From Spirochaetia bacterium (lineage in GTDB: Bacteria; Spirochaetota; Spirochaetia; CADAEX01), in NCBI GenBank assembly GCA_963662795.1, contig OY759746.1, positions 1,856,001-1,920,000 of the forward strand: a stretch of DNA of 64,000 nucleotides, written 5' to 3'. The first letter of the stretch is position 1, and each line of letters opens with the position of its first letter. Both the position numbers and the translations under genes were made by a program. Below the pieces are notes generated by a model. The model was given only the letters and a program-made list of their open reading frames with translations. It made no database searches and was not told the DNA's origin. Shown here piece by piece: positions 22,031 through 44,581 of this stretch.

Positions 22031-22296
22031 AATCAAGCTGCCGTCCATGGCAGCTTGATTAAGGCGGGGCACTGGTGGATAACAGAGGATAATGCGCTTC
22101 GCTCCCTTTGGTCGCTTGGGCTTCGCCACACATCGTAGGGTTTGAACTACAACTTTTAGAATCAACAGGGTTTGGAAGAGAAATACTACAGCTTTTAGAT
22201 ATACATGCATATTCTGCGATGCGTCGCTTATCCTCGAGACGTTATATGCAATACGACCCCAAGAGGACATCGCCCGGACCTCCGGCCCACGGGCGA
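22031..22296 (+). repeat. Composite attC-like site 14
   Basis: Left hairpin AATCAAGCTGCC-GTCCAT-GGCAGCTTGATT; AAC ends 22083; GTT at 22241. Confidence 0.85.
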
Positions 22297-22309
22297 AGAA
22301 AATGGTATC

Positions 22310-22376
22310 TGCTGTATAATATACTTTTACTTTATACATAAGATATATAGTTTTCTAGTTATTTAATATGTTATGT
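22310..22376 (+). promoter_or_regulatory. Cassette-internal TATAAT box plus attI-like insertion site (copy 1)
   Basis: CTGTATAAT ... TAGTTTTCTAGTTATTTAATATG|TT, crossover G22370; motif recurs at 31759, 35919, 61628. Confidence 0.7.
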
Positions 22377-22390
22377 GTATATAGGGTAAA

Positions 22391-24331
22391 ATGAAAAGAA
22401 AATTTACATTAGATGATATGAAATTACTCGCTAAAAAGCATGGAGGAGAATGCCTTTCAAAAGAATATAAAAATAAGAAAACTAAGTTGACCTGGAAGTG
22501 TGGAAAAGGACACATATGGGAAGCTGCTCCAAATTCTTTGTTATATACGGATACGTGGTGCCCAGTCTGTGGAAGGGAGAAAAGTATTGAGGGTAGACGT
22601 TTAGGGATAGAAAAAGTAAGAGATATTGGTAAAAAGAGAGGATTTATTCTAATAACAAAATTGTATATAAACTCTGAGCAAAAACTTGACTGGCAATGTA
22701 TAAATGGCCATATTTTTAAAGCTAATATAACCACAATAAAAAATGGAAAGTATCCTTGTCCAGATTGTAGAAAAGAACAAAGAACAGCTCATAATAAGAA
22801 GAAAATAGATTATTTCTATAAATATGTAAAAAACCGTAATGGTAAATTAGTTAAGGTAATAAGTGATAATGAATTTCTTTTTGAATGTGATCAAGGACAT
22901 CAATGGATTGGAACTAGAACAAGTGTAATTTCTGGTAGCTGGTGTGTAAAATGTTCATATAAAAAAAGAGGTATAGAGAAAAGAAATAAAATAGATGAAT
23001 ATCAGCTTATAGCAAAGGAACGTGGTGGTAAACTTTTATCAACGGAATATAAAAGAATATCAGATAAATTAAAATGGGAATGCAAACAGGGGCATGTTTG
23101 GGAAGCTTCGGCAGGAAGTGTTAAAGCAGGGAGTTGGTGTCCTCAGTGTTCGTCAGGTTTAGGTGAAAGAATATGTAGATTATATTTTAATAAAATATTT
23201 AGTGAAAAATTTATAAGGGCATATCCTGAATGGTTTAGAAATGAACGTGGGAATTTGATGGAGCTTGATGGATATTCAAAGAAATTGAGTATAGCTTTTG
23301 AACATCAGGGTGAGCAACATTATTCTTTAAAGACAAGATATATTAATGATAAAGAAAATTTAAAAAAAAGGATTATGGATGATGAATTAAAAGCTGAGCT
23401 TTGTAATAAACATAATGTTGCTTTATTCATAATACCATCGATAAATCATATAATCCAAATCTCTGAAATGATTGGGGTTATAAAAGATGAAGCTAAAAGA
23501 TTGAATATACAATTACCAAGTAATATTGATGATATAGAAGTTGATATTAATTCAGCATATAAAGTAGATTTCCATCGTGAAAAATATATGGAGTTAAAGG
23601 AAATTGCGCATAAAAAAGGTGGAGAAATCATATCTGAAATTTATGAAAGCGATAGAAAGAAATTAAAATTTAAATGTAAAGAAGGTCATATCTGGGAAAC
23701 AATTCCAAAAGATGTTTTTAGAGGGCATTGGTGCAGGAAATGTGCTGCAAAAGAAAGAGCAGAAAAACAAAGAATTACAATTTCTGAAATTAATGACTTG
23801 GTAAAGAATAAAGGTAGATGTCTTTCTGAAGAATATCTTGGATATGATGAGCCTTTATTATTTATTTGTAATGAAGGACATAAATTTAAATTAACTCCAA
23901 AAGCCATTAAAAGAAGAACTTGGTGCCCTGAATGTATGAAAATTGATAAAAGTAAATTATCAAAGCCTAAATTTAAAGAATATAATGAAATTGCAAAAGC
24001 AAGAGGTGGAAAATTACTTTCAAAAGATTATATCAATGATAAGAAGGATTTATTATGGGAATGTTCAAAAGGGCATACATGGCAGGCAAATGGTTACAAT
24101 ATAAAAAATAGTAAAACATGGTGTCCTATATGTGCAAAAAATCAACCCTTTACAATTGAATATATAAAAGAATATATATCTAAATATGAAGGTGAGTGTT
24201 TAAGTACAGAATATAAAAATTATAGAACAGTTTTGAAATTTAGATGTAAAAATGGTCATGTTTTTGAAAATAGCTTTATTAATATAAAACGTGGTGTCTG
24301 GTGTCCTAAATGTAAAGAAAATAACACATAA
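22391..24331 (+). CDS. Zinc-ribbon repeat protein with central PD-(D/E)xK-like nuclease
   Basis: 8 CxxGHx(W/F)...CxxC repeats (4+4) around ELDGY..AFEHQGEQHY. Confidence 0.7.
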   Translation: MKRKFTLDDMKLLAKKHGGECLSKEYKNKKTKLTWKCGKGHIWEAAPNSLLYTDTWCPVCGREKSIEGRRLGIEKVRDIGKKRGFILITKLYINSEQKLDWQCINGHIFKANITTIKNGKYPCPDCRKEQRTAHNKKKIDYFYKYVKNRNGKLVKVISDNEFLFECDQGHQWIGTRTSVISGSWCVKCSYKKRGIEKRNKIDEYQLIAKERGGKLLSTEYKRISDKLKWECKQGHVWEASAGSVKAGSWCPQCSSGLGERICRLYFNKIFSEKFIRAYPEWFRNERGNLMELDGYSKKLSIAFEHQGEQHYSLKTRYINDKENLKKRIMDDELKAELCNKHNVALFIIPSINHIIQISEMIGVIKDEAKRLNIQLPSNIDDIEVDINSAYKVDFHREKYMELKEIAHKKGGEIISEIYESDRKKLKFKCKEGHIWETIPKDVFRGHWCRKCAAKERAEKQRITISEINDLVKNKGRCLSEEYLGYDEPLLFICNEGHKFKLTPKAIKRRTWCPECMKIDKSKLSKPKFKEYNEIAKARGGKLLSKDYINDKKDLLWECSKGHTWQANGYNIKNSKTWCPICAKNQPFTIEYIKEYISKYEGECLSTEYKNYRTVLKFRCKNGHVFENSFINIKRGVWCPKCKENNT

Positions 24332-24473
24332 CAAAAAAAATGCAGTTGTCGCCGTCTATTGTCACGATTCTGGCAGAGACGTTCCGCGCTGATCGCGCTC
24401 CACTCCAGAATCGCGCCAATTCCTTCAGCCTACGGCTTCAGGATCGAGGGCGCAACTGATTTTGTCGTTATAC
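24326..24473 (+). repeat. Canonical (foreign-type) attC nested in wrapper cassette
   Basis: ACATAAC overlaps the stop codon and complements cassette start GTTATGTG (22370); CAGTTG/CAACTG stem; ends G|TTATAC. Confidence 0.8.
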
Positions 24474-24497
24474 TGGAATATTTAGAAAAGAGGAAAA

Positions 24498-24769
24498 GTC
24501 CGGCCTTGGCGGTGCCGTGCGGCCTGGACAAGAAGGGGTCGTACTGCATATAACAGAGGATAATTCGCTTCGCTCGGATTACCTCGCTTGGCCTTCGGCA
24601 TATTTTGCTATCATCAAACTTGAACAGTAAAAGTTGAACCCTTTTCAAGATTAACAAAGTAGACATAAATGTTTTAGAGTTTTAACCGCAAAACATCGCT
24701 TATCCTCGGGACGTTATGCTCAATACCAGCCGCAAGAGGAAATCGCCCGGACCTCCGGCCAACGGGCGA
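24498..24769 (+). repeat. Composite attC-like site 15
   Basis: AAC ends 24554; GTT at 24713. Confidence 0.85.
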
Positions 24770-24840
24770 GAGAGAAGAAGAAACAATAAGTATAGATTAA
24801 ACTGTAAAAGATAAGAAATGCTTATGGAAAGTGAAAGAAC

Positions 24841-24869
24841 TTGACAATAATATGTAATAACAATATAAT
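24841..24869 (+). promoter_or_regulatory. sigma70 promoter of TA operon
   Basis: TTGACA-17 bp-TATAAT, same as 7529-7557. Confidence 0.8.
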
Positions 24870-24887
24870 TACAGCAAGAGGTAAAGA

Positions 24888-25136
24888 ATGATAGTTTCTG
24901 TTGTTCCAATTGGAAATTCGAAAGGAATACGTCTTCCAAAAGCATTATTAAATCAACTAAAAATATCAGATAAACTGGATTTAGAAGTAGAAGATCAGAA
25001 AATAATACTTAAACCTGTATCTGATAATCCAAGAGCAGGATGGAATTTGGCTTTTAAAGATATGCATGAAAAAAATGAAGATCAATTATTGATAAATGAA
25101 AGTATTGATTCTAAGGATTTCAAATGGGAATGGTAA
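24888..25136 (+). CDS. mazE: AbrB/MazE family antitoxin (near-duplicate of 7576-7824)
   Basis: Protein differs from copy 1 at one residue. Confidence 0.85.
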   Translation: MIVSVVPIGNSKGIRLPKALLNQLKISDKLDLEVEDQKIILKPVSDNPRAGWNLAFKDMHEKNEDQLLINESIDSKDFKWEW

Positions 25137-25453
25137 TAAATCAGTATGAAGTCTATCTGGTTGAGCTTGATCCAACAAAGGGACATGAAATACAAAAAAC
25201 GAGACCTTGTTTAATTATTTCCCCTGATGAAATGAATCATAATATAAGTACTGTCATTATTGCTCCAATGACAACAAAATCACATAATTATCCAACACGG
25301 ATAGAATTAAAGTTTTTAGGAAAAAAGGGATGGATAGTATTAGACCAAATAAGAACGATAGACAAACAAAGATTAATAAAAAAAATTGGTAAAATTGAAA
25401 TTAATGAAGTAAGAAAAGTAAAAGAAACTATTAAAGAAATGTTGGTTGATTAA
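25124..25453 (+). CDS. mazF: PemK/MazF family toxin (near-duplicate of 7812-8141)
   Basis: Same motifs; a few C-terminal substitutions. Confidence 0.9.
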   Translation: MGMVINQYEVYLVELDPTKGHEIQKTRPCLIISPDEMNHNISTVIIAPMTTKSHNYPTRIELKFLGKKGWIVLDQIRTIDKQRLIKKIGKIEINEVRKVKETIKEMLVD

Positions 25454-25507
25454 TAAGTCAAATTACATATAGAAAAGAGATTAAATATTTTAAAAATAAA
25501 GAAAAGC

Positions 25508-25690
25508 AGTCGTACAACTTGGAGAAGAAGTAAGGCAATTGTGGATAATTGCGATTAGTTCACAGCATTCCCTGTGGTCGCTTAGATTTAGCTAAACATC
25601 ATAATTAAAAATATTAAGCAAATTTAAAAATACCCCCATGATTTGCAATTTTTCAATTCTCAACAAACGCTAAGCGGTAATCTGCCATAT
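25508..25690 (+). repeat. Degenerate composite attC remnant
   Basis: GGCAATTGTGGATAATTGCGATTAGTTC..TCCCTGTGGTCGCTT resembles native GGCACTGGTGGATAACAGCGATTATTTC..TCCCTGTGGTCGCTT; no intact AAC/GTT. Confidence 0.55.
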
Positions 25691-25691
25691 T

Positions 25692-26575
25692 TTATGAGGC
25701 AAGTGGTAATTCTAATTGTTTCATGACGCTTATTTTGGGAATATCAACTTCGATTGAATCAATTGGACTTTTAATATTCAAAAGATCAAACCTTTGTGCA
25801 TGCAAGTATATCATTGTAGAGTTTATTGAAGAGTGCCCTAAGAGTCGCATAATATAAAATATATTTACATTATGCTCTAATAGATGTGTTGCAAAACTAT
25901 GCCTTAATGTGTGAACATGTGCAGATTTATTTATATTTGTTTTACTAAAATATTTCTGAAAAACCTCCTGAACACGCCTTATTTTCATAGGTATAGCTTT
26001 ATTTCGAAGATTAAAAAATAAATAATTAATAGGAACATAATTCTTTATATATTCTTTTAATAATTTAATTGTATTGTCACCAATTATCGCATATCTTTCT
26101 TTTCTATTTTTTGATTCTGACACAAAAATAAGTTTTCTGTTAAAATCTATATCAGATATTTTAATGTTTAAGCCTTCTGATATACGAAGCCCTGAAGAAT
26201 ATAGTAATGTGAACAAAGTTTTATATCTAAAATCATAACAGTTGTCTAAAAACAGTTTTACTTCTTCTTTTGTCAGAATAGTTGGAACTTTAAAACTTTT
26301 TTTGGTCTTGGGATGGAAATAATATATTCTCTCATATTGTGAAGAGAAAAGAAAAATAAAAGAGCATGATAATAACAATGAATTATGGAGGGACTATTAC
26401 CTGAATCATATAAATAAAAGAAAAATCGTCTTAATTCCTGTTTTGTTATATCTGTGGGTTTTTTATTGAAAAATAAAGCAAGTTTATTAACATAAAAGAC
26501 ATATTGATTTATAGTTCTTTGGCTATATCCTTGTAAAGTCATTTCTTCAATCATGTGTTCACGTAAATATCCCAT
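25692..26575 (-). pseudogene. Tyrosine recombinase/integrase (SAM-like N-terminus + catalytic domain), split by one frameshift
   Basis: ORFs 26273-26575 and 25692-26378 join at an A7 run (26297-26303); catalytic R (SGLRISE), K, HxxR (HTLRH), H (LLGH), Y (TMIY) intact; ~294 aa if restored. Confidence 0.8.
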
Positions 26576-26911
26576 AATTATCTCCTATAAAAAATAAGTA
26601 TTTCAGTATGGAAAATATTTGAAAATGTTTAAAGCTATTATTTTATACTTTTAGAATTATATAATAAAAAATGTAAAGCAAGATAGATAATAACCGCTTA
26701 AAACAGCACCTCAAGCTGGGGAAGTTAAAATTAAAAAAGATACTGTAAATATATTGCTTTAGAAGAATTTATTAAATGAAGGGACATAGAAAATATTTTT
26801 GTGATCAAAAAAATAAGAGATTCCAGTAGATGGTTTTAGAAAGAAAAAATATTTTTAACAACATCTGAAATAACAGAAATTGATTATGTCATTTTAAAGA
26901 ATAAGAATTGA

Positions 26912-27183
26912 GTCCGGCCTTGGCGGTGCCGTGCGGCCTGGACAAGAAGCGGCTGGTACTGGAGCATAACAGAGGATAATTCGCTGCGCTCGGAGTACCT
27001 CGCTTGGCCTGCGGCATATTTTGCTATCATCAAAACAGTTCAAATTATGTTTATACTCTATTTAAATATATTTCTTAAGACTATTCGTTGAAAAAGGTTT
27101 TAGCAAAACATCGCTTATCCTCGGGACGTTATAAGCAATGTTCCCGCAAGAGAAAATCGCCCGGACCTCCGGCCGACGGGCGA
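26912..27183 (+). repeat. Composite attC-like site 16
   Basis: AAC ends 26970; GTT at 27128. Confidence 0.85.
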
Positions 27184-27327
27184 GGAATAATGATAAAAAT
27201 TCTATATTATGAATATCTTCTGCATATATGAAGGTTTTTAATGAAAGTAAATTGTCAATACCAGAGAATACAGAATATAAAAACCAAATATTTATTGTAG
27301 ATTATAAAAATGATTTGATATATCTGC

Positions 27328-27356
27328 TTGACAGATATATCTGTATGGCATATATT
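27328..27356 (+). promoter_or_regulatory. higBA promoter with palindromic operator
   Basis: TTGACA-17 bp-TATATT overlapping palindrome ACAGATATATCTGT. Confidence 0.7.
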
Positions 27357-27362
27357 ATTTGT

Positions 27363-27644
27363 ATGATTCGATCTTTTGGGGATGAGGAGACAGAAAAGAT
27401 TTTTAGGCAAGAAAAATCAAAGAAATTGCCTCCAGAGATACAAAAGAGAGCTTTAATAAAATTATTGCTCCTTGAAGCTGCAACAACAGAAGATGATTTA
27501 AAGGTTCCACCATCGAATCGTTTTGAACATCTAAAGGGTAAATTAAAAGAATATTGTTCAGTGAGAATCAATAATCAGTGGCGTGTACAATTCAAAATGA
27601 AAAATGGGGAATTATATGATGTTTCAATTGTGGATTATCACTGA
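27363..27644 (+). CDS. higB: HigB (RelE-like) toxin
   Basis: MIRSFGDEETEKIF..PPSNRFEHLKG..SVRINNQWR..VDYH; start reassigned downstream of the promoter. Confidence 0.9.
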   Translation: MIRSFGDEETEKIFRQEKSKKLPPEIQKRALIKLLLLEAATTEDDLKVPPSNRFEHLKGKLKEYCSVRINNQWRVQFKMKNGELYDVSIVDYH

Positions 27645-27657
27645 GAGGAAGGATTAA

Positions 27658-27960
27658 ATGAGAAAAGATACTATCGAAACACCAAAAATTGGAGATATTC
27701 TAAAAGAAGAATTTCTCGAACCATTAGATATTTCTGCATACCGGCTTGCAAAAGAAATAAATGTTTCAACAAGTTCTATACTGGATATACTACATAATAA
27801 ACGGAAGATATCTGTGGAAATGGCATTAAGATTAGCTAAGTATTTTGGTACATCATCAAAATTTTGGTTAAATTTGCAAAACGAATTAGATCTTAGAGAA
27901 ACAAAACACAAAATAGAAAAGGAATTAGAAAAAATCACATTACATGCACATATTGCATAA
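27658..27960 (+). CDS. higA: HigA antitoxin (XRE HTH)
   Basis: GDILKEEFLEPL..MALRLAKYFGTSSKFWLNLQ. Confidence 0.9.
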   Translation: MRKDTIETPKIGDILKEEFLEPLDISAYRLAKEINVSTSSILDILHNKRKISVEMALRLAKYFGTSSKFWLNLQNELDLRETKHKIEKELEKITLHAHIA

Positions 27961-28020
27961 ATCAAATACACCTTATAAAAATAGCTTTATCTGATAGGTT
28001 TGTAATTACTTTATAATAAA

Positions 28021-28292
28021 GTCCGGCCTTGGCTTCCAGCCGTACGGCCTGGACAAGAAGCGGGAACACTGCTTATAACAGAGGATACTGCGCTACGCTC
28101 GGAGGACCTCGCTTGGCCTGCGGCATATTTTGCATTTTGATAATCAACACAATTAAGAATATCTTGTTTTCAGTATTGATAACCACAAAATATTAAATCT
28201 TTTAGTATTTTGCAAAACATCGCGTATCCTCAGGACGTTATAAGCAATGTTCCCGCAAGAGGAAATCGCCCGGACCTCCGGCCGACGGGCGA
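28021..28292 (+). repeat. Composite attC-like site 17
   Basis: AAC ends 28079; GTT at 28237. Confidence 0.85.
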
Positions 28293-28438
28293 AGATATAT
28301 GAATCAGAATATCTCTTTGAGAAAGACTCAGAAGTTAATTCAATAACAAAGGTAAAAATATTTACATAAGTATACAGTTTTTAAAAATAATTCAGAAAAA
28401 GCTTGTTAAATACGATATATTATCGTATATTTCATCTT

Positions 28439-28648
28439 ATGAAAGTAACTGCAATAATCGCTGATGAACTAATAAATGAAGTTAAACACTATTCAAATAG
28501 TACCACAACAACAGAGGCCATAACTATAGCCTTGAGAGATTGGCTTGATATTCATCATATTAAAGAATTAAATGCGCAAATATCAAAAACCCCTATTACT
28601 TTTAATTATTCTGCAAAAAAGATAAGAGAAGTAAATAGAAAATCATGA
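28439..28648 (+). CDS. vapB: VapB-like ribbon-helix-helix antitoxin
   Basis: MKVTAIIADELINEV..TTTEAITIAL; ATGA overlap with PIN toxin. Confidence 0.7.
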   Translation: MKVTAIIADELINEVKHYSNSTTTTEAITIALRDWLDIHHIKELNAQISKTPITFNYSAKKIREVNRKS

Positions 28649-29019
28649 TAATTCTTGATACTTCTGTTTGGATAGAGTTTTTAAAAGCAAATACGGAATA
28701 TTACAATCAAATTGCACAATTATTAGAAAAAAAGGAAGTACTTGCGGTAGAATGTGTATTTGGAGAATTATTTCAGGGAATAAAGAGTGAAAGAGAAAAA
28801 TCTTTAATATCAGAATACTGGAAATACCTTCCTAAAATTGACAGTTCAGGATTATTTATAGAGGCAGGAATATATTCGAATAAAAACAAATTATTGGATA
28901 AAGGAGTGGGTCTTATTGATTCATTAATTTTGGTACATGCATTGAAATTAAAAATATCAATATGGACTCTCGATAAAAAATTACTAAAAATAATACCAAA
29001 AGAACTTATTTATAAATAA
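28645..29019 (+). CDS. vapC: VapC PIN-domain toxin
   Basis: ILDTSVWIEF, GEL, DSLI, WTLDK. Confidence 0.85.
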   Translation: MIILDTSVWIEFLKANTEYYNQIAQLLEKKEVLAVECVFGELFQGIKSEREKSLISEYWKYLPKIDSSGLFIEAGIYSNKNKLLDKGVGLIDSLILVHALKLKISIWTLDKKLLKIIPKELIYK

Positions 29020-29058
29020 TTAATTACAAATAAAAATATAACAAAAAAAACAATATTA

Positions 29059-29345
29059 GTCCGGCCTTGGCTCCGCCGTACGGCCAGGACAAGAAGCGGG
29101 AACACTGCTTATAACAGCGGATGACCAGTTCCGGCTGGTGGAAAGTAAAATATAAGGGAAAGACCAGCCTTCACCCAAATTGCCTATTTTGGAAATCCTT
29201 TTGAATAATATAAAATATTAGGGAAGAGTTTAAACAGTTGTTGTACAATTCAATTGAATAATCCGGCAACTTCGGTCATCCGCGGGACGTTAGCAGCAAT
29301 ACGTCCCCAAGAAGACAATCGCCCGGACCTCCGGCCAACGGGCGA
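29059..29345 (+). repeat. Composite attC-like site 18
   Basis: AAC ends 29115; GTT at 29289. Confidence 0.85.
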
Positions 29346-29414
29346 GGATAGGTGGTAATAATATTTTTTCAAAAACAGTTGAAATTAAAAATATGAGAAA
29401 TAACTGATAAAATT

Positions 29415-30128
29415 ATGAAAATATTAACATGGAATTGTAATATGGCATTTCGAAGAAAATATGAAATCTTAAAAGATTTTCAACCGGATATTGCTGTAAT
29501 ACAAGAATGTGAAAACAGCAGTGTCTTAGAAAAGTTTAAAAATGAAATAAATTATTCAGATATATTATGGTATGGTCATAATAAAAATAAAGGCTTATGT
29601 ATCCTGACTTTTGATAAATACTACATAAAAGATATAATTCAAAAAGAAGATTTCAAGTATGTCCTTCCTGTTAAAATTGGTAATGATATATTTTCGATGA
29701 AATTAATAGCTGTATGGACACAATTTGTAAATAAAAATATTTATGAAAGCTATGTTGTTCAGGCTACAAGAGCATTTCAATATTACAGAAAAGCATTGGA
29801 GCAGGAAGATATTTTTATAATAGGAGATTTTAACAGTAATTCGATCTGGGATAATGAATCTCCAAAAGAATACACACATTCACAAATGGTAGATTTGCTG
29901 AAACAAGAAAAAATTGAAAGTATTTATCATTTTTTAAAAAAAGAAAAACACGGAAAAGAAACAATTCCTACATTATTTTTTCAGAAGAATATAAATAAAA
30001 CATATCATATCGATTATTGTTTTTGTAAAATATCGAGAATGAATAAAATTAGAGATTTCAGAATTGGAGAATATGACAAATATATCACCAAAAGTGATCA
30101 TATGCCTCTGTTTATTGAAATAGAATAG
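29415..30128 (+). CDS. Endonuclease/exonuclease/phosphatase (EEP) family protein
   Basis: LTWNC, IQEC, IGDFNS, HIDYCF, SDHMP. Confidence 0.9.
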   Translation: MKILTWNCNMAFRRKYEILKDFQPDIAVIQECENSSVLEKFKNEINYSDILWYGHNKNKGLCILTFDKYYIKDIIQKEDFKYVLPVKIGNDIFSMKLIAVWTQFVNKNIYESYVVQATRAFQYYRKALEQEDIFIIGDFNSNSIWDNESPKEYTHSQMVDLLKQEKIESIYHFLKKEKHGKETIPTLFFQKNINKTYHIDYCFCKISRMNKIRDFRIGEYDKYITKSDHMPLFIEIE

Positions 30129-30133
30129 AAATA

Positions 30134-30166
30134 TTGACAATTCTCACGAAGTACAATATATTGTAC
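30134..30166 (+). promoter_or_regulatory. yefM-yoeB promoter/operator
   Basis: TTGACA-17 bp-TATATT; palindrome GTACAATATATTGTAC. Confidence 0.7.
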
Positions 30167-30182
30167 AATAAGGAGAAAGGAA

Positions 30183-30693: not shown

Positions 30694-30721
30694 TAAAGCA
30701 AATAATTAAAAAAAGGAAGAA

Positions 30722-30988: not shown

Positions 30989-31047
30989 AAGAAAAAAATA
31001 AGTGTTTGATATCTATTGAAAGTGTGAACATGTAAAAATCTTACTTT

Positions 31048-31420: not shown

Positions 31421-31441
31421 AGTAGAAATCCCTGAATAAGA

Positions 31442-31691
31442 AATCAATCTGCCGTCCATGGCAGCTTGATTGAGGCGGGGGACACTGCAGCTAACAGCGA
31501 ATGGCCGGTTTCGACTGTTTCTAAGGAAACAGCCTCCACCCAAATTGCCGAAATAAATCATGGTAAGAATAATGTTATAGAGTATAAACTTTTAGAGTTA
31601 AAAACACCATCGGCAACTTCGGTCATTCGCGGGACGTTATCCACAATATCATCGCAAGAGAAAATCGCCCGGACCTCCGGCCAACGTGCGA
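31442..31691 (+). repeat. Composite attC-like site 20
   Basis: AAC ends 31495; GTT at 31636. Confidence 0.85.
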
Positions 31692-31704
31692 AGAAAATAA
31701 AATC

Positions 31705-31765
31705 TGCTGTATAATATATTTTATACATACCATATATAGTTTTCTAGTTATTTAATATATTAAAT
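31705..31765 (+). promoter_or_regulatory. Cassette-internal TATAAT box plus attI-like site (copy 2, crossover G>A)
   Basis: CTGTATAAT..TAGTTTTCTAGTTATTTAATATA|TT, with A at 31759 where the other copies have G. Confidence 0.65.
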
Positions 31766-31798
31766 GCGCAGAAATATTATCATGTGGTGAGGTGAAAA

Positions 31799-34774
31799 AT
31801 GATAGTAAGTAATGAAACTGGTGAAAATCAATATCCTAAAGGTTCCGAATGGCGTAAGTGGGATTTACATATTCATTCAAACGCATCAGATGGTAATATG
31901 ACATGTGAAGAAATTATTGAAGAAGCAAAAAGAAAAGATATATCAGTCATTGGTCTAACTGACCATCATACTTCAAAAAATATTGATATAATTAAAAAAA
32001 TAGCAAATGAAAATGAGATATGTGCAATTGGTGGCGTGGAATTTAGAACAGAATATGGTGAAAAATCTGTTCATTTAATTGGTTTATTTCCTAATAAATA
32101 TGAGCAATATGAAATGAATAGTAAAAATATAGAAGATTTAATACTTAATCCATTAGGTTTAACTGAGGTCAAAATTGTTGAAAAAGGAAAACAAAAAATA
32201 ATTGATGAAGGGAAAAAAAATACATCAAATGAAAAAGCATTTAAAGAGGGAATGTTTCTAGTACAGGTTGATTTTAAAAAGGCTGCAAATTTAATCCACA
32301 AATATGGTGGAATTGTGATTGTTCATGCAGGAACAAAAGAAAATAGTCTAGATAAAGAAGTTAAACATATTGGAAAACAAGGAGTTTCTATTGAAAACTG
32401 TTTAGGCTCATTAAAAACTGAACTATTTACAGAAGGATATATTGATATCTGTGAAATTAGAAAAGAAAATGATGATGAGTTATTCTATTTAAAAAAATTT
32501 GGAAAAGCTTCAATTGTAGCTTCTGATGCACATGAAATAAAAGAAATTGGTAGTAAATACTCGTGGATAAAAGGGGATCCAAGTTTTGATGGATTACGTT
32601 ATTTATTAAATGAACCAGAAACTAGAGTAAATTTATCTGAAAAACCAGAGTTGTTTGAACGTGTACTTCAAAATGAAACAAAATATATTGAAGGATTATC
32701 AATAAAATCTGAAGAATATTATGATAAAAGTAATGGAAAATGGTTTGATAATACAAAAATAGTATTTGGAAAAGAATTAACAGCAATAATAGGGAATAAG
32801 GGTAGTGGTAAAAGTGCTGTTACAGATATTATTGGATTATGTTCAAACAGTAAGCATAGTCAGTATTTTTCATTTTTAAGAAAAGATAGATTTTTAGAAA
32901 ATGGATATAGTGAAAATTATAAAGCAAAATTATATTGGGTAAGCAATATTAATAAGGATTGGAAAAGCTTAAGTCAAAAAGTTGATATAACAGAACCTGA
33001 TGAAGTTCAGTATTTGCCACAAGGGTATTTTGAAAAAATATGTAATGAAGTAGGAAATATAGATGAATTTAAAAAGGAAATAAATACTGTAGTTTTTCAG
33101 CATATACCCGAAGAAGACAAACACGGAATGAGTTCTTTTGATGATTTTATAGAATCTAAAAAAAAGTATATTCAAAAGATATTAATATCTAAAAAACAAA
33201 TATTAAATGAAATAAATATTGAAATAGTTAAATTGGAAGAAATGAGAAATCCAAAAACTAAATTGGAGATACTAAATAAAATAAAAAAGAAAGAAAATGA
33301 ATTAGAGGCATTGAAAAAACCAATTAAAGTAAATAAACCAAAAAAAAATACTGTAAATGAGTTAACTGATACTGCAGAAATGACAAAGTTAGCAAAGAAT
33401 ATTGAAAAATTAAAAGAACAACTTGAAGATATCAGAGATAGAATAAAAATAAATAATGATAAACATGAATTATTAAAACAATTTAAAAGGGAGGTCGAGG
33501 AAAAACAGGAAGATATCGATCATTTTATTAAATCTTATGAAAATAAATTCAAATTAATTAAAGAAATTAAAGTTAAAGAAATAATTAAATATGAAATAAA
33601 TGAAGAACCAATTATAAAGTTATTAGCAGAAATAAGGAAAAATATAGATTTAGACAAGAAATATATAAATGAAGAAAGTATAAAAGATAAAAATGAAAAA
33701 GAGATTAGTCTGGTTGTTAAATTAAAAGATAATGAGAAAAAATATTCAAAGTTACGATTAAAGTTAGATGAACCAAGCCGAAAATATGAAGACTATAAAA
33801 ATGCATTAAAAATATGGGAAGAAAAAAGTAAAAGAATACTAGGAAGTGTTAAAATACCAGATACATTAAATTATTATAAAGATAAAATAAATTATATAGA
33901 AAATATATTAGAAAAGGATATTGAAAAAAAGAGACAAAAACGAATAGAAATAGTAAAGGAAATATATAATGTAAAATGTGAAATAATTGATATATATTTA
34001 GAAATAAAAAAGTATATTGACAGAGTAATAAAAAGCAATCAAGACCATCTTGGTGATTATAATATTAATATAATATCTGAATTCATTTTACAGAATAGTA
34101 CCATAAAAAATATAATAAATTATATTAGTAAAAATGTTGTTGGAACTTATTATGGAATAGAATCTGCGGAAAATAAAATTAATACTTTATTCTCTACAAC
34201 TGATATAAATAATATTGATAGTATTATAAATTGTTTAAATAAAATAATAAAATCATTGGAAAGAGATGAAAGAAACGATTCTATGGAAATACGATATATT
34301 AATGATCAAATAATAAACTCACTTGAATTCTATAATTATATTTTTTCATTAGATTATTTAGATGAAAATTATGAATTAAAACTAGGAGAAAAAAAATTAG
34401 AAAAATTATCACCTGGAGAAAAGGGGGCTCTTTTAATAGTATTTTATTTATTATTGGATAAAAGTGAAAAACCATTAATATTAGATCAACCTGAAGATAA
34501 TCTTGATAATGAAAGTGTTTCAACGATACTTGTTCCATTTATAAAAGAAGCAAAAAAGCGAAGACAAATAATTATGGTTACTCATAACCCCAATTTGGCA
34601 GTATATGCAGATGCTGAGCAAGTAATACGAGTTTTTATTAATAAAGATATAGAAAATGAATTTAGTCATTCATCTGGCGGAATTGAAAATGAATATATTA
34701 AAGATCATATTATAAATGTTCTTGAAGGAACAATGCCGGCCTTTAGTAATAGAAGTAAAAAATATTCTAAATAA
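31799..34774 (+). CDS. PHP phosphoesterase fused to SMC/ABC-type ATPase (TrlF/Ppl-like)
   Basis: WDLHIHS, TDHH, SDAH; GNKGSGKS; LSPGE; LDQPEDNLD; VTHNPN. Confidence 0.85.
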   Translation: MIVSNETGENQYPKGSEWRKWDLHIHSNASDGNMTCEEIIEEAKRKDISVIGLTDHHTSKNIDIIKKIANENEICAIGGVEFRTEYGEKSVHLIGLFPNKYEQYEMNSKNIEDLILNPLGLTEVKIVEKGKQKIIDEGKKNTSNEKAFKEGMFLVQVDFKKAANLIHKYGGIVIVHAGTKENSLDKEVKHIGKQGVSIENCLGSLKTELFTEGYIDICEIRKENDDELFYLKKFGKASIVASDAHEIKEIGSKYSWIKGDPSFDGLRYLLNEPETRVNLSEKPELFERVLQNETKYIEGLSIKSEEYYDKSNGKWFDNTKIVFGKELTAIIGNKGSGKSAVTDIIGLCSNSKHSQYFSFLRKDRFLENGYSENYKAKLYWVSNINKDWKSLSQKVDITEPDEVQYLPQGYFEKICNEVGNIDEFKKEINTVVFQHIPEEDKHGMSSFDDFIESKKKYIQKILISKKQILNEINIEIVKLEEMRNPKTKLEILNKIKKKENELEALKKPIKVNKPKKNTVNELTDTAEMTKLAKNIEKLKEQLEDIRDRIKINNDKHELLKQFKREVEEKQEDIDHFIKSYENKFKLIKEIKVKEIIKYEINEEPIIKLLAEIRKNIDLDKKYINEESIKDKNEKEISLVVKLKDNEKKYSKLRLKLDEPSRKYEDYKNALKIWEEKSKRILGSVKIPDTLNYYKDKINYIENILEKDIEKKRQKRIEIVKEIYNVKCEIIDIYLEIKKYIDRVIKSNQDHLGDYNINIISEFILQNSTIKNIINYISKNVVGTYYGIESAENKINTLFSTTDINNIDSIINCLNKIIKSLERDERNDSMEIRYINDQIINSLEFYNYIFSLDYLDENYELKLGEKKLEKLSPGEKGALLIVFYLLLDKSEKPLILDQPEDNLDNESVSTILVPFIKEAKKRRQIIMVTHNPNLAVYADAEQVIRVFINKDIENEFSHSSGGIENEYIKDHIINVLEGTMPAFSNRSKKYSK

Positions 34775-34956
34775 AATGATACTGAAATTAATAAAGTATA
34801 AATTATTAAAAATATATTATGAATAGCATACGTATGTTACCTTCTGCTAAAACTTTTCGTGATACAATTTGAGCAAGGTAAAAATTGAAAATATTTTAGG
34901 GAATGCGGCGTTGTATCTGATACATGTGTTATAAAAAGAAAAATAGAAACGGGGGA

Positions 34957-35191
34957 AGTCCGGCCTTGGCGTTGCCGTGCGGCCCTGGACAAGAAGCGAT
35001 GATACTGGTGGATAACAGAGGATAAAGCGCTTCACTCGGGGTACCTCGCTTGGGCTTCGCCACACATCGTAGGGTTTGAATTACAACTTCTAAAAAAAAC
35101 AAGTCTAGAGGGAAATAATACAGCTTTTTAACTTTCATAGTTATTTACGATGCGTCGCTTATCCTCAGGACGTTATGCGAAAGGCTGGCCG
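34957..35191 (+). repeat. Composite attC-like site 21
   Basis: AAC ends 35016; GTT at 35172. Confidence 0.85.
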
Positions 35192-35655
35192 AAGAGGAAT
35201 AGGCTGGGGGCGGGGGAGAGGAAGACGCCGCCGTACATCGTGTGCGCCGAAGAAAAATTAATAAACTGTGATTTTTATAATCTGTAAGAGTGTTTGTATA
35301 AATTACCATTATAAAAGCAGAAAAAATGAAAATATAATTTTATTTTAGCAGTTCCTTCCGTTTCATTTGATTATGGCTTGGTTAATAAACAAAAAAAAAT
35401 AAATCGCATAAAATGTAATATATTTTTGTAAGTGAAAATTATTTGGGATAAAGGTGAAAATAAAACTCTTAAGCTTGAAAGATATATTTCTTTCAAGATA
35501 TTTGTGGATTTGATTCTGGGGCTAGTTATAAAGTTAATTTGCAAAATATTAACCTTGGAATATAGCTGATTATGATAATTTTCACCGTCTCACACTTCCA
35601 TGTGTTCGACGAAGACCGCCCCAGCCAAGAAGAGCCGGCCAGCCCATCGCATAAC
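35172..35655 (+). other. ORF-less cassette
   Basis: Ends GTTATGCGAAAGGCTGGCCG / CGGCCAGCCCATCGCATAAC; AT-rich interior with no credible ORF. Confidence 0.7.
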
Positions 35656-35851
35656 AGCGAATGGCCGGTTCCGGCTGTTTCTAAGGAAACAGCCTCCACC
35701 CAAATTGCCGAAGTAATACATGTTAAGAATAATGGAATAGAGTATAAACTTTTGGAGTGAAAAACACCATCGGCAACTTCGGTCATTCGCGAGACGTTAT
35801 ATGCAATACGACCCCAAGAGGACGCCGCCCGGACCTCCGGCCCACGGGCGA
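35586..35851 (+). repeat. Composite attC-like site 22
   Basis: AAC ends 35655; GTT at 35796. Confidence 0.8.
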
Positions 35852-35864
35852 AGAAAATGGTATC

Positions 35865-35925
35865 TGCTGTATAATATACTTTATACATAAGATATATAGT
35901 TTTCTAGTTATTTAATATGTTATGA
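35865..35925 (+). promoter_or_regulatory. Cassette-internal TATAAT box plus attI-like site (copy 3)
   Basis: Near-identical to 22310-22370; crossover G35919. Confidence 0.7.
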
Positions 35926-35990
35926 GTCTAAGACGCGTCGATAGTTTTTTATATGAAGCAATTAAATTGATCTAAGGAGGGTCTGAAAAT

Positions 35991-37259
35991 ATGTATTTCA
36001 AAGCGGGAACTAGGAATATTGTTTTTGTGGTTGCATTTGTTCTATTGGCAGGCTGTACCACTATTGATACGAAGCCATTCGAACAGTTTAACTCCTCGTT
36101 AACAGAGTTAAATAAAGGGGCAACATCATCGCTTGATGTGACCATTCCTTTAGCGGAAGGGCGTTACCGGAAAGAAGTCGAGAGTGAATTAAAGCAAGGG
36201 AATGACGAGTTGTTACAGGAGCTTTATATACTGGCTAAAGCAGAGAATCCATTTTTCATATCTAAGCCACCAGTATTTTTAAAGGCGAAAAAATTTAAAT
36301 TAGGAATTTCGAAAGCCAACCTAGTTTGGTTGGAATACTCTAATCTTTTGTTACAACTTTCATCGAAAGATCTTGTCGATGATGAAAAGTTTTTGAAGCT
36401 ATCAGAAGAACTTAATAAAAATGCGTTCGACGCGGTTCAGTCGCTCAAAGATGAACCCAGCGATACATCTGCAAAAAATACGGCACTTTTTTCAGAGATA
36501 GCTATTGCAATGGCGAAAGAGTACATAAGAACAAAGCAGAAGAAAAAGCTTATGGAGTCTCTCGCTAACAATCAAGACAGCATTAGTGCCTATGTAGAGC
36601 ATATGCAAAGTGCGATAGTAACAATGGCGCAAAGCAGTACTCAGGAACACTCAGAAAAGCAGGAAAATTTAGCTAGAGATCTTTTAGGTTTGGTGGTTAG
36701 TAACGAAAACGGTAAGAACGATGCAAAAATACAAAAAATTATCGGGGATATGATTGATATCAAAACTACACATTCAGACCAAATGGTGTCTCTCCAGGCG
36801 TTGCATACAGCATATGGAAAAATACCTGGTGCCCATGAAGCGTTGGCAACGCGGTTGGCTAAATCAGATTCATCTATAGCTGCCATTAATGACCTGTTAG
36901 AAAAAGGAGTTCAGCTTCATACTTCTTACGAAGCGAAGGTAAAAGTTAATAAAGTAGAATTGGTGCAAGCTAAAGCAGATGCAGCGAGTAGTGAAGCTAC
37001 AACAGCTGAAATCACATATCAGCAAGCCAAGCTAAAATACACGCAAGCCCAATTTGAATATACCTTGGCACAAAATACTTCAGATGCAGATCCCGATAAC
37101 GAAATCAAAAAGAAAGATGCTGAAGATAAAAAGAAAATAGCTGAAGAGCTTAAATTAGAGGCTGATGGTCTAAAAAAATCTTCCGAAGCCCTAAGAGCGG
37201 CTGCGACGGCTATACAAGAAAGTGCTAACGAAATCAAAAACAGTATTATCAACAATTAA
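35991..37259 (+). CDS. Alpha-helical/coiled-coil lipoprotein
   Basis: Signal peptide with LAGC lipobox; GGAGG RBS; visibly more GC-rich than its neighbours. Confidence 0.7.
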   Translation: MYFKAGTRNIVFVVAFVLLAGCTTIDTKPFEQFNSSLTELNKGATSSLDVTIPLAEGRYRKEVESELKQGNDELLQELYILAKAENPFFISKPPVFLKAKKFKLGISKANLVWLEYSNLLLQLSSKDLVDDEKFLKLSEELNKNAFDAVQSLKDEPSDTSAKNTALFSEIAIAMAKEYIRTKQKKKLMESLANNQDSISAYVEHMQSAIVTMAQSSTQEHSEKQENLARDLLGLVVSNENGKNDAKIQKIIGDMIDIKTTHSDQMVSLQALHTAYGKIPGAHEALATRLAKSDSSIAAINDLLEKGVQLHTSYEAKVKVNKVELVQAKADAASSEATTAEITYQQAKLKYTQAQFEYTLAQNTSDADPDNEIKKKDAEDKKKIAEELKLEADGLKKSSEALRAAATAIQESANEIKNSIINN

Positions 37260-37270
37260 GGAGCTAAGAG

Positions 37271-37621
37271 ATGCCTATTTCCATGACAAAAAAACAAGAA
37301 ATAATACAGCAATTATTGGTTTTAAAAACAAAAGCGTATCAAGCGGAAGTTAAATTGTTGTTAAAACAAAAGCCTAACGAGGCCAACGATGTAAAGAATC
37401 ATGGTAAAGAGCTGTCCAGAAAGATTGATAACTTAATAGCAGAAACAATGAGTGACTGGATAGGAAATGCCGACAAACTTATTAGTGATGTAAAGTTGAT
37501 TAACAAAAAAGTACAACGTTCTATTAATGATATAAATAACAATGCAAATGTAGCTGGAAACGTTGTTAAGTTAGTCGGTTTCATTGATGAGGTAGTTGAA
37601 ATTGTTGACGGGATTACTTAA
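37271..37621 (+). CDS. Small helical hypothetical protein
   Basis: AAGGAG RBS; same nested cassette as the lipoprotein. Confidence 0.65.
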   Translation: MPISMTKKQEIIQQLLVLKTKAYQAEVKLLLKQKPNEANDVKNHGKELSRKIDNLIAETMSDWIGNADKLISDVKLINKKVQRSINDINNNANVAGNVVKLVGFIDEVVEIVDGIT

Positions 37622-37628
37622 TTACGAC

Positions 37629-37761
37629 TCATAACATGTCGCTCGAGTAGTCCGCGCGGCATGCTATCACCAGCCGAGATTTTTGCTAGCTGCATCTTGC
37701 TTTTCATTAGAATATTAATCTTTTCAGCAGCACCACGCGGCAACTCAGCTCTGCGTTATGT
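37629..37761 (+). repeat. Canonical (foreign-type) attC nested in wrapper
   Basis: GACTCATAAC complements cassette start GTTATGAGTC (35919); ends AACTCAGCTCTGCG|TTATGT. Confidence 0.8.
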
Positions 37762-37826
37762 TTATCAAAATTAGATAAATTGAGAGTGTTAGTTGAAATG
37801 GGTAAAAAGTAGTAGAAGGAAAAGTT

Positions 37827-39032
37827 ATGGGATGTAATCATGAAGAAATTGAATTATTAAATCCTTATGAGATAGTATGGAAGTATAGGTGTAAAAAATG
37901 TAAAGAAGTATTTATGTGTAGCTGTGAAGAAGATGTTGCAAGGTTTTATGTACCACATCAATTAGATAAAGGATGTAACTTAGAAACCCAAGAGCGAATT
38001 CCTGTTACATTGGGGTTTGTAGATAATATTTGCGATTCTTGTAGGGGGAATAAAAAGAAGCCTTTTCCCAAAGCGCCAATGATGGGTGCAACCAGCAAAA
38101 TACGAAGATATTATTGGAAAGAGATTTTATATATAAAAATAAGAAAAACTATTGAATTCGCTAAGAATAATAATTGTGATTCGTATGATGCTGTATTAAA
38201 AAAATATCCTGAGAAAATAGAACAATTTGAAAATGAGGCACTAAATGAAATAAAGGAATTACATGCTAAACATCCATTATATGAATATGAAGATATTTCA
38301 CAACAGGAAATAATTGAAAAATACAATATTGATATGATAGAATTTGAAGCTAATTATATAAAATCAGAAGAAAAAAAAGTAATCATTGAATATAAAAATG
38401 AAAAATATAATGTTGAGGAATTTATTAGAAGGAAGTATGAAGAAAAAGGCTTTAAAACACTTATATTAGAAAGTATTCCTTTTCATGTTTTGTTTGCTAC
38501 AATATTTAATAATATTATTCAAAATATTGATGATGAAAAAGTTAGACGTACAAGTTTTGGCGATCGAGAATATAGAGGAATAATGATAAGTGCATTACTT
38601 CCTTCTGACTTTGGGACGTCAGGGTATTACAAAAGAAAAAGAGAAATAATTGATAACTTTTTGAAGAAATTCACATCAAAAGAATTATTAATTGAAGAAT
38701 TTACTCAAAATTTAAATAATCCCATTAGTGAGAATTTAAGACAATATTTATGGGCAATAGATATTGAAAAAATAGAAATAGCCAGAAAACTTCTTGATAT
38801 CATAGATCATAATATCATGAAAAATATTTTACTTTATTTAATAAAGGATTACTGGAAGAATTATTGTGGATGGCCGGATTTGATTTGTTATACAGATGAA
38901 AAAGTATTATTTGTTGAAGTTAAATCAAGTACTGATAAACTAAGTGAAGATCAAAAAAACTGGATTGAGGGAAATTATAAAGAATTATCTATAGATTTTG
39001 AGATAGCGAAAGTTATAAGATTGAAAACATAA
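37827..39032 (+). CDS. VRR-NUC domain nuclease with Cys-rich N-terminus
   Basis: GWPDLI..FVEVKS..DKLSEDQKNW; CxH, CxxC, CxC, CxxC. Confidence 0.85.
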   Translation: MGCNHEEIELLNPYEIVWKYRCKKCKEVFMCSCEEDVARFYVPHQLDKGCNLETQERIPVTLGFVDNICDSCRGNKKKPFPKAPMMGATSKIRRYYWKEILYIKIRKTIEFAKNNNCDSYDAVLKKYPEKIEQFENEALNEIKELHAKHPLYEYEDISQQEIIEKYNIDMIEFEANYIKSEEKKVIIEYKNEKYNVEEFIRRKYEEKGFKTLILESIPFHVLFATIFNNIIQNIDDEKVRRTSFGDREYRGIMISALLPSDFGTSGYYKRKREIIDNFLKKFTSKELLIEEFTQNLNNPISENLRQYLWAIDIEKIEIARKLLDIIDHNIMKNILLYLIKDYWKNYCGWPDLICYTDEKVLFVEVKSSTDKLSEDQKNWIEGNYKELSIDFEIAKVIRLKT

Positions 39033-39180
39033 CAAGCAAATCGAGCAGTCCTGACTATTGTCACGGTTTCTGCTAAAGCCGTTCCGGCTCCCTGCGTGAT
39101 CACCCTCCGCCTGCACTCAGGAACAGCGTCAATGCCATCGGATGGCTTTGACTGTCAGGCAGCTCATCTGGTAGTTATAC
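39027..39180 (+). repeat. Canonical (foreign-type) attC nested in wrapper
   Basis: AAACATAAC (overlaps stop) complements GTTATGTTT (37755); CCTGAC/GTCAGG stem; ends G|TTATAC. Confidence 0.8.
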
Positions 39181-39204
39181 TGGAATATTTAGAAAAGAGG
39201 AAAA

Positions 39205-39487
39205 GTCCGGCCTTGGCGGTGCCGTGCGGCCTGGACAAGAAGGGGTCGTACTGCATATAACAGCGATTATTTCGCTGCGCTCCCTGTGGTCGCTTGGGCT
39301 CCTGCCAGTTGAGCTGGCAGATCGCCATATTTTGTTTTCATAAAACCGGAACAACATGTGTTTTATGCTCTTCAAGTTTGTAAAAACCAAATAAAAATAT
39401 TTTAGAGTTTAGTCACAAAACATCGAATAATCGCGAGACGTTATCTGTAATACCGCCCAAGAAAATAGTGCGCCATCCTTGGCGCAC
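39205..39487 (+). repeat. Composite attC-like site 23
   Basis: AAC ends 39261; GTT at 39440; right hairpin GTGCGCCATCCTTGGCGCAC. Confidence 0.85.
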
Positions 39488-44512: not shown

Positions 44513-44581
44513 GGATATGCAGTAGGAGTAATATACAGTATAATAGTATATGTTAGAAGAACCATTCGGGCAGAAGAAAAA

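Follow-up and report, generated by a model that had tools for sequence, protein, structure and literature searches.

Known integrons and a nested array in a Spirochaetia genome

Integrons are thought to have a single attI site per platform, fixed beside the intI gene. In the attI/Pc platforms of class 1-3 integrons and of the Vibrio superintegron, cassettes stack at the one G|TT of a double-stranded, non-hairpin site near a promoter, and the start of each cassette matches its own R''. The same traits, with a likely promoter, recur in a 64,000-nucleotide (nt) stretch of the genome of a Spirochaetia bacterium (contig OY759746.1 of GenBank assembly GCA_963662795.1, positions 1,856,001 to 1,920,000 of the forward strand; hereafter the window), in which gene cassettes sit inside other cassettes that we call wrappers. 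Unlike attI/Pc platforms, the insertion sites of the wrappers have no adjacent integrase gene, occur in 27 copies inside the cassettes of another array and show no detectable similarity to the attI sites of the lineage.

The closest published behavior is the insertion of cassettes at secondary or attG sites (GWT, GTTRRRY), where they can be expressed if a resident promoter is near; in the available parts of these reports, attG sites are described as very numerous and as sharing only a 3-nt consensus (10.1101/2022.09.11.507474; PMC10127599). The wrappers are similar in that cassettes are placed at GTT outside attI and attC, but they differ from attG sites, as far as those parts of the reports describe them, in having one conserved motif, at least 23 nt long, that is reused, lies on an apparently mobile unit and is kept across genera. 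Promoter-bearing gene-less cassettes of Vibrionaceae superintegrons (10.1101/2023.11.21.568050) likewise are short non-coding modules that possibly supply a promoter inside a long array, but going by the abstract of that report they are neither insertion sites for other cassettes nor nested. The outer array resembles sedentary chromosomal integrons in its single orientation, its about 155-160 cassettes, its repeated hairpins, its G|TT boundaries and its toxin-antitoxin cassettes (MazEF, PIN). It is unlike them in a recombinase that lacks the IntI insertion and lies upstream and co-oriented, in long junctions with an asymmetric bulge, 20-bp stem extensions and two extra hairpins, and in its length, which to our knowledge exceeds that of any integron array. 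A literature search found no account of nested cassettes, of a cassette-borne attI or of arrays with this recombinase, while supplements of surveys might list the array as an attC cluster.

Cassettes nested within cassettes

An earlier note on the window had described the units 22241-24554 and 35796-39261 as near-identical shells filled with one and two canonical cassettes, respectively. Every string it quoted is present where it had been placed, and the nested two-tier architecture is confirmed. The window (G000:C1:1856001-1920000) is part of a 3.93-Mb genome, G000, in which units of the outer, "type-B" array consist of a start repeat (IR-L, the left inverted repeat), a hairpin H2, one or more genes, a hairpin H1 and an end repeat (IR-R), followed by a spacer. 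In wrappers, the 5' shell contains an additional AT-rich module downstream of H2 that ends in the docking motif ...TAGTTTTCTAGTTATTTAATATG|TT. The 20-nt outer inverted repeats of the two quoted units (start GTTATATGCAATACGACCCC, end its near-complement) match at 19/20 positions, and their cargo lies between ...AATATG| and |TTATACTGG..., with the first 9-10 nt of each inner cassette perfectly complementary to its own R''. Chance does not produce these shells: The 23-nt 5' motif has four window matches at up to 3 mismatches (22348, 31737, 35897, 61606) versus 0.00 expected and none in 100 shuffles, and the 30-nt 3' shell has two (24468, 39175) versus 0 expected. The wrappers of the window, all on the plus strand, are composed as follows.

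22241-22370, plus strand: 5' shell of wrapper 1, with IR-L at 22241-22260, H2 at about 22270-22296, TATAAT at 22315-22320, docking motif at 22348-22370 and crossover G at 22370
22371-24467, plus strand: inner canonical cassette of wrapper 1, with a gene at 22391-24331 (646 amino acids, aa) and an attC at 24326-24473 whose R'' ACACATAAC complements the cassette start
24468-24554, plus strand: 3' shell of wrapper 1, with TTATACTGGAATATTTAGAAAAGAGGAAA, H1 at 24497-24529 and IR-R at 24535-24554
31636-35016, plus strand: wrapper 2, with repeats of type CCAC/ATCATCGC, docking motif at 31737-31759 ending A|TT, and 3' shell TTATAAAAAGAAAAATAGAAACGGGGGA before H1 at 34957
35796-35919, plus strand: 5' shell of wrapper 3, with IR-L, H2, TATAAT at 35870-35875 and docking motif at 35897-35919
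35920-37755, plus strand: inner cassette A of wrapper 3, with genes at 35991-37259 and 37271-37621 (no Pfam family) and an attC at 37629-37761
37756-39174, plus strand: inner cassette B of wrapper 3, with a gene at 37827-39032 (VRR-NUC domain) and an attC at 39027-39180
39175-39261, plus strand: 3' shell of wrapper 3, identical to that of wrapper 1, with H1 and IR-R
44457-45412, plus strand: wrapper with the second shell type, ...CAGTATAATAGTATATG|TTAGAAG, junction G at 44552 and an attC at 45198-45322 whose R'' CTTCTAAC complements the cargo start
61504-63245, plus strand: wrapper 4, a chimera with IR-L of type AGCAGC/ACGTCCCC, IR-R of type GCTC/ACCAGCCG, docking motif at 61606-61628 and H1 at 63186
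61629-62472, plus strand: cassette A of wrapper 4, with an attC at 62357-62481
62473-63161, plus strand: cassette B of wrapper 4, with a weak attC at 63106-63170

The product of the wrapper 1 cargo gene combines four treble-clef zinc-finger DUF4379 repeats with a CapR homology domain, and the attC behind it folds on the bottom strand at -36 kcal/mol (z -5.6). The cargo gene of wrapper 2 (31799-34774, 991 aa) encodes a protein with PHP and AAA domains that the PADLOC Ppl model recognizes at E 6.6e-29; a second open reading frame of 991 aa lies at 53246-56221. A covariance model of the inner attCs (see below) found five sites in the window at E<1e-6 (24323-24476, 37626-37764, 39024-39183, 45198-45322 and 62357-62481) and a weak sixth at 63106-63170 (E 0.054), yet none in wrapper 2. 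Each of the six is in a unit whose 5' shell is promoter-like, and the earlier note had placed all of its six canonical attCs inside wrappers, though the unit around 45198 has a different shell type; its 3' junction is mutated to G|TA. Two further copies of the motif had been announced at 31759 and 61628, and both exist, but the former ends ATATA|TT instead of G|TT. The unit around the latter, 61504-63245, carries the docking motif of a wrapper but has discordant outer repeats.

Wrappers across the array

The nesting extends far beyond what had first been noted, with 27 wrappers in an array of about 333 kb. Allowing up to 4 mismatches, the docking motif occurs in 27 copies on the plus strand that all lie within the array, 4 of them in the window, and a single further match with 4 mismatches is found elsewhere in the genome on the minus strand. 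In 26/27 copies TT follows the motif at the same position, with junctions reading ATATG|TT in 22 cases, ATATA|TT in three and ATAGG|TT and ATATG|GT in one each, and TATAAT lies upstream of the motif in 18/27. Families can be told apart among the 3' shells and correspond to the type of the outer repeats: TTATACTGGAATATTTAGAAAAGAGGAAA is present in 7/7 units of type ATGC/ACGACCCC, TTATAAAAA..TAGAAACGGGGGA in type CCAC/ATCATCGC (where 9/18 units are wrappers) and an A-rich shell in type GCTC/ACCAGCCG (6/19 units). Shells of different types are clearly homologous.

We resolved the cargo of 12 wrappers fully into one or two cassettes each by a chain-walk, and that of a thirteenth partly; the starts of the 15 cassettes obtained match their own R'' perfectly over 7-11 nt, and three additional wrappers have perfect 9-nt matches. 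The cargo is different in all 27 wrappers, and the only shared segments are two elements resembling insertion sequences (IS). Since the cassette beside the junction differs every time, the junction must have recombined many times.

Both IS-like elements are observations in their own right. The first (1785 nt, with a 512-aa DDE transposase and inverted ends GAGGCTGTAGA) is present in two wrappers with 99.9% identity, at L022:17923-19691 (genome 2,146,923-2,148,691) and at array position 218684-220468. In one of these wrappers it directly follows the G|TT of a mapped canonical attC, and its left flank of 16 nt is identical in both, so this element may target attCs. The second (1276 nt, with 16-nt perfect inverted ends CATAGGTGTCCAAAAC) lies in two wrappers (array positions 216709-217984 and 267351-268626) and in the 5' shell of unit 303450 (at about 303480), which it truncates.

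A second type of 5' shell, ...[C/G]A[G/A]TATAAT[A]ATATATG|TTA..., is found at window positions 44457-44552 and at array positions -4700, 66339, 77038 and 130102, and in 3/5 of these units an R'' is complementary to the bases past the junction. Two wrappers, 61504-63245 and array position 267233-269457, are chimeras with start and end repeats of different types. They would fit recombination between the inner sites of two wrappers, while homologous recombination between shells gives the same result.

Contigs from read runs of other samples (X4, X5 and X6) contain the shells at high depth without this cargo. Those of X5 and X6 join position 22373 to 24467 with the sequence between unread, which makes an empty wrapper and other cargo indistinguishable, and we did not use them as evidence for either.

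Inner cassettes and their attC family

The covariance model was built on 15 inner attCs, and its genome-wide scoring covered 150 of 905 first-look candidates. The earlier note had called the inner attCs unrelated, but all 15 align as one family with conserved internal blocks, invariant AAC and GTT, and compensatory changes at 12/19 predicted pairs. Among the scored candidates, the search of G000 gave 30 matches at E<=0.01, all of them in the array (1,852,040 to 2,173,462), so that canonical attCs were found only within the type-B array. Relaxing the threshold to E<=1 at the array loci gave 33 plus-strand matches in 27 of about 155 units, comprising 22 with the docking motif, two second-shell paralogues (also ...TATATG|TTA), one with a degenerate motif and two unclear cases.

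By their attC hairpins, G|TT boundaries, start/R'' complementarity and membership in an IntI-linked attC family, the inner units qualify as integron gene cassettes, whose excision and insertion by IntI are predicted. They had been taken for foreign DNA. However, the inner attCs are 75-97% identical to those in the classical integron arrays of related genomes. The classical array of the relative G008 also holds a cassette that shares 77.5% identity over 1072 nt with the wrapper cargo at array position 285175, and a second cargo, that of wrapper 126470, gave 68.6% over 602 nt. The cargo is therefore drawn from the canonical cassettes of the lineage itself.

The outer array is integron-like

The type-B array around the window spans G000:C1:1,847,952 to at least 2,180,706 and comprises about 155-160 cassettes, all on one strand. 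The GC-rich core of H2 (at up to 2 mismatches) has 160 copies in the genome, all on the plus strand between 1,850,162 and 2,180,034. Parsing yielded 155 unit starts with the pattern ..ACG|TTAT-4 nt-CAAT-8 nt; for most of these, the matching end has the pattern 8 nt-ACTG-4 nt-ATAAC. The cut in type-B cassettes is at G|TT, and their 20-nt start pairs with their own end as a cassette-specific stem extension. Their junctions are attC-like hairpins that span 140-180 nt from R'' to R', are flanked by two conserved GC hairpins and carry a 1x5 asymmetric bulge in the stem. L'' (9 nt after AAC-A) and L' (9 nt before the 5-nt bulge and GTT) are complementary at 7-9/9 positions in 150/150 parsed junctions, with at least 6 covarying types such as GAGGATAA/TTATCCTC, GCGATTAT/ATAATCGC and GCGAATGAC/GTCATTCGC. 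The junction behind wrapper 1 is an example:

24550-24717, plus strand: type-B attC-like junction with R'' ATAAC, L'' GAGGATAAT, L' TTATCCTC, bulge GGGAC and R' G|TTAT; the next start lies at about 24713-24714

When a junction is joined to the start of its own cassette, as in an excised circle, it folds well above shuffled sequences (median z -6.5 for 24 cassettes, every sixth of those parsed), whereas no such excess was seen (z +0.19) for a single junction taken as it stands in the array, between flanks of unlike type. Neighboring ends across type-B junctions are often of different repeat types. The type of a spacer tracks the upstream end repeat (mutual information 0.93 versus 0.69 permuted, reached in 0/2000 permutations) and shows no association with the downstream start repeat (p 0.25), as expected from a crossover at the G|TT of R'. 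The inner-attC model has no match to the outer junctions at E<=1. Contrary to the suggestion that the outer array has a different, non-integron site architecture, its long attC-like hairpins with G|TT crossover make it integron-like: It is built of cassettes with attC hairpins as integrons are, but no IntI adjoins it.

Similar arrays extend beyond the family, with H2 arrays in 8/11 genomes of a second family (f2) of the class, the largest with 12-15 copies. Two side observations concern the units themselves. A conserved 3' motif, ACAGGTAGAGTAATTACCTGACA (at up to 4 mismatches), forms a small stem-loop directly 5' of H1 in 24 units with unrelated genes (e.g., window 1250, 2871 and 4248) and has five more copies outside the array. 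At array position 311998-312894 (genome about 2,167,998-2,168,894), the right half of a type-B junction is missing, and a gene followed by a 130-nt attC-like hairpin of another family stands in its place.

Recombinases

A tyrosine recombinase of 339 aa is encoded upstream of the array on the same strand (G000 1846782-1847801); the array begins 150 nt past the stop codon of this gene, and its first junction reads ...CAACTACTAGGAG|TTATACG. Between this gene and the first cassette lies a hairpin with perfect pairing, TGCAGATA..TATCTGCA, with ATAAC and GTTG on its two sides (L001:9815-9870), which may be a terminator or a piece of a type-B attI. An intact paralogue of 294 aa is encoded inside the array (genome 2050716-2051597). 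The best NCBIfam model for both enzymes is NF040815, XerA-like (214.5 and 217.2 bits for the 339-aa and 294-aa proteins; cut-off 220), while the integron integrase model TIGR02249 matches both only in two pieces (3-172 and 230-313 for the array's recombinase; 200 bits, cut-off 265). Aligned with the IntI of a relative, both enzymes lack the 28-aa and 11-aa IntI insertions (..AGVEMPHALGRKYPNAGKEWGWF..), and the IntI-specific insertion is reported to be required for attC recombination. Atlas neighbors of the array recombinase are mostly from Bacteroidota, and a genome search for T9SS tails gave a single hit. The cassette 24713-26970 in the window holds a third, broken copy of this type:

25692-26575, minus strand: frameshifted XerA-like tyrosine recombinase in two open reading frames, third copy of the system-B type
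24888-25453: MazE/MazF pair of the same cassette

The canonical intI of G000 is a pseudogene in two pieces with three stops (2 TGA, 1 TAG) at G000:C1:412371-413302. Its attI side meets an IS30-like element after about 100 nt, and no canonical attC was found near it.

Relatives and metagenomes

Four of 19 other genomes of the family (G002, G005, G008 and G011, the latter three in sister genera) contain the H2 motif in 4-11 copies each. Intact IntI proteins are encoded in G005, G008 and G011 (388, 384 and 400 bits with TIGR02249); they are divergent and adjoin classical arrays of the inner-attC family with 20, 47 and 54 model matches, respectively, of up to 104 bits. The H2-type arrays of the same genomes are small, separate from the classical arrays and each near a XerA-like gene. 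Both systems supposed by the earlier note thus exist in the family, while the assignment of an enzyme to each step is our inference. From the complementarity between the start of the first cassette and the R'' of the first attC, we set the attI crossovers of G005, G008 and G011 at ...GATTGAATATGTAATG|TTATC, ...TATTGAATATGTAATG|TTATA and ...GTTGAATATTATATG|TTATA.

The earlier proposal called for a search for further cargo, and loaded wrappers with different cargo at the same junction occur not only in G000 but also in G008, G011 and three metagenome contigs. The H2 array of G008 (G008:C5) contains one whose 37-nt shell core is identical to that of G000 although the genus is another; its junction reads ...TTATTTTATTTG|TTCTAAAG, and the attC R'' CTTTAGAAC matches the start over 9 nt. 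In the H2 array of G011, the junction is ...CTTATATG|TTATATGATC with an 11-nt matching R'', and this genome also holds a decayed solitary wrapper. For a shell-bearing unit in G005, we found no matching R'' or attC. Among 28 metagenome stretches matching a degenerate motif, three are true wrappers (L080, L094 and L095), one of which lacks the TATAAT part and keeps the docking motif. The docking motif was not found at up to 2 mismatches in 40 relatives apart from G000, nor at up to 3 mismatches in five f2 genomes with H2 arrays; 21 single matches in a scan of genome contigs come, by their titles, from unrelated taxa and were judged to be chance.

A proposed portable integration site

From this anatomy we think that canonical cassettes were probably inserted into a portable site by recombination of the IntI type. 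System A is a classical integron, with an IntI that has the specific insertion, an attI crossover at ...TTGAATATGTAATG|TTAT and attCs of 76-160 nt, and system B an integron-like array behind a XerA-like recombinase without that insertion, whose cassettes are cut at G|TT. The wrappers are a subset of system-B cassettes bearing the AT-rich, non-folding module, usually with TATAAT. Circular system-A cassettes would have entered at its G|TT by integrase-type recombination of a folded attC with a double-stranded recipient, giving the order left arm-G|TT-cassette(s) with own attC-G|TT-right arm. In this way the module would serve as an attI-like entry point that is portable and probably includes a promoter, and a wrapper, once loaded, would still be a cassette of system B, open to storage and shuffling by that system. 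It is IntI that we suppose to have loaded the wrappers and system B to move them; in G000, the system-A platform is dead and its cassettes were found inside wrappers only.

The docking region itself does not fold better than shuffled sequences on either strand (z +0.37, -0.84 and -0.40, versus -5.6 for the inner attC), as expected of a double-stranded recipient site. It contains three AGTT(T/A)T repeats with a putative role in integrase binding. An attI lies between intI and the first cassette, whereas docking sites lie inside cassettes, 30-320 kb from the gene of the array recombinase, and the intI pseudogene is at 412 kb; insertion at one G|TT of a double-stranded site, the other hallmark of attI, is what their anatomy displays. 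An attG site would have a minimal GWT core, unconserved flanks and a scattered distribution; the docking site has the GTT core, but 22/27 attC units use the same motif. We also considered the module as a copy of a canonical or type-B attI, which found no support (by eye, the first type-B junction is unlike the docking site), and the docking region as a mini-attC hairpin (ACATAA[G/C]ATAT...ATATGTTAT), which folding does not support.

Several observations weigh against the proposed mechanism. The genome with a dead IntI has 27 wrappers, while those with an intact IntI have 1-2. Five of the 27 motif units contain no attC detectable by the model (though in unit 299581, one of the five, a perfect R'' precedes a very short hairpin that resembles an attC), the first cargo start matches no R'' in several wrappers including 61504 and 31636, and unit 152443 has GT instead of TT after the motif and no attC. 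The predicted empty wrappers were found neither among the 27 units of G000, where the shortest residue past the junction always holds cargo, nor in the type-B arrays of relatives or the metagenome matches. The site had further been called attI-like, but its left arm shows no significant similarity to the attI sites of relatives (9 comparisons, p 0.03-0.58), which are similar among themselves (p<0.0005), nor to the remnant beside the G000 intI pseudogene (p 0.32-0.96). With recurrent insertion but no detected similarity, the docking site is attI-like only in apparent function. The promoter proposed at the TATAAT box fared no better: A consensus scan found no acceptable -35 element, though the consensus of this host may differ, and such a scan is near background in AT-rich DNA (17 found versus 11.9 +/- 3.5 expected); the metagenome copy without the box keeps the docking motif. 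We take the TATAAT box as no more than a putative promoter. Finally, the other-family, canonical-looking attC at array position 312765-312894 directly abuts a type-B start, ..CTAACCG|TTATGCTC, which means that mixing is not strictly limited to wrappers.

Alternative explanations

Some of these points would fit a historical accident, in which a secondary, attG-like GTT/GWT site downstream of a promoter in one ancestral type-B cassette took up a canonical cassette on one or a few occasions, the wrapper then multiplied within the array, and the left arm was kept by descent and selection for expression rather than as a recombination signal. IntI is known from the available parts of published work to use GWT/GTTRRRY secondary sites, with expression near a promoter (10.1101/2022.09.11.507474; PMC10127599). 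The lack of detectable attI similarity in the left arm, the clear homology of shells with different outer-repeat types and the presence of a canonical cassette in the second, different shell (...TATAATAGTATATG|TTAG) all agree with such an origin. We nevertheless regard it as unlikely because the cassette beside the junction differs in all 27 copies and because 22/27 attC units use one motif although the AT-rich array offers very many GTT sites. Descent and promoter function would also leave unexplained that the motif is kept in the metagenome copy that lost its TATAAT part and that a 37-nt core is identical in another genus.

The dead intI of G000 with its 27 loaded wrappers raises the question whether a single recombinase suffices, with the XerA-like enzyme of system B recognizing both hairpin classes and loading the docking site while IntI is uninvolved. 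At least two intact system-B genes are present (1846782-1847801 and, in the array, 2050716-2051597), both site classes share the AAC...GTT logic and the G|TT crossover, and in one hybrid junction a type-B start directly follows an attC of canonical type. Yet in G005, G008 and G011 the classical arrays beside IntI hold only canonical attCs and the H2 arrays lie elsewhere beside a XerA-like gene, so that in three genomes with two systems the cassette pools are largely kept apart. The first junction of the array, ...CAACTACTAGGAG|TTATACG, is unlike the docking site, and the enzyme lacks the insertion that is reported to be needed for attC recombination; overall, loading by system B alone seems to us rather improbable.

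A reversed polarity, with 3' shell, H1, outer junction, H2 and 5' shell forming a mobile block that inserted at the G|TT of a canonical array, would explain that this block starts with TT and ends with G like a cassette, but it is already contradicted, and hardly credible, since the 20-nt outer repeats pair across the cargo within the same unit (19/20 in both quoted wrappers), neighboring ends across a junction often differ in type with the spacer following the upstream end only, and a canonical attC is present in only 27 of about 155 units. Chance resemblance or misassembly of a highly repetitive region in a genome that is a single assembled contig can be dismissed almost with certainty, given zero matches expected by chance for both motifs, the same architecture in independent assemblies (G008, G011 and three metagenome contigs) and contigs from runs of other samples that hold the shells without this cargo.

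Implications for integron biology

If the mechanism of IntI-type loading is correct, the insertion site apparently resides on a mobile cassette in dozens of copies, which would give an array more points of entry and expression, and wrappers would let cassettes cross between two recombination systems. They would offer a natural case of how cassettes enter a new type of array, a matter relevant to the still open origin of cassettes. In the outer array, an integron-like system seems to be served by a recombinase without the domain that is taken to define IntI. Because the cargo includes nuclease and defense-like genes, the arrangement may also matter for how defense islands assemble. A broader reading, which we put forward tentatively, is that a cassette-borne, portable attI with its own promoter couples a classical IntI integron to a previously undescribed system, run by a XerA-like recombinase and able to build a 333-kb array. 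Wrappers would be loaded by one enzyme and stored, moved and exchanged between genera by the other, and the canonical cassette pool of this lineage could in this way outlive the loss of its IntI.

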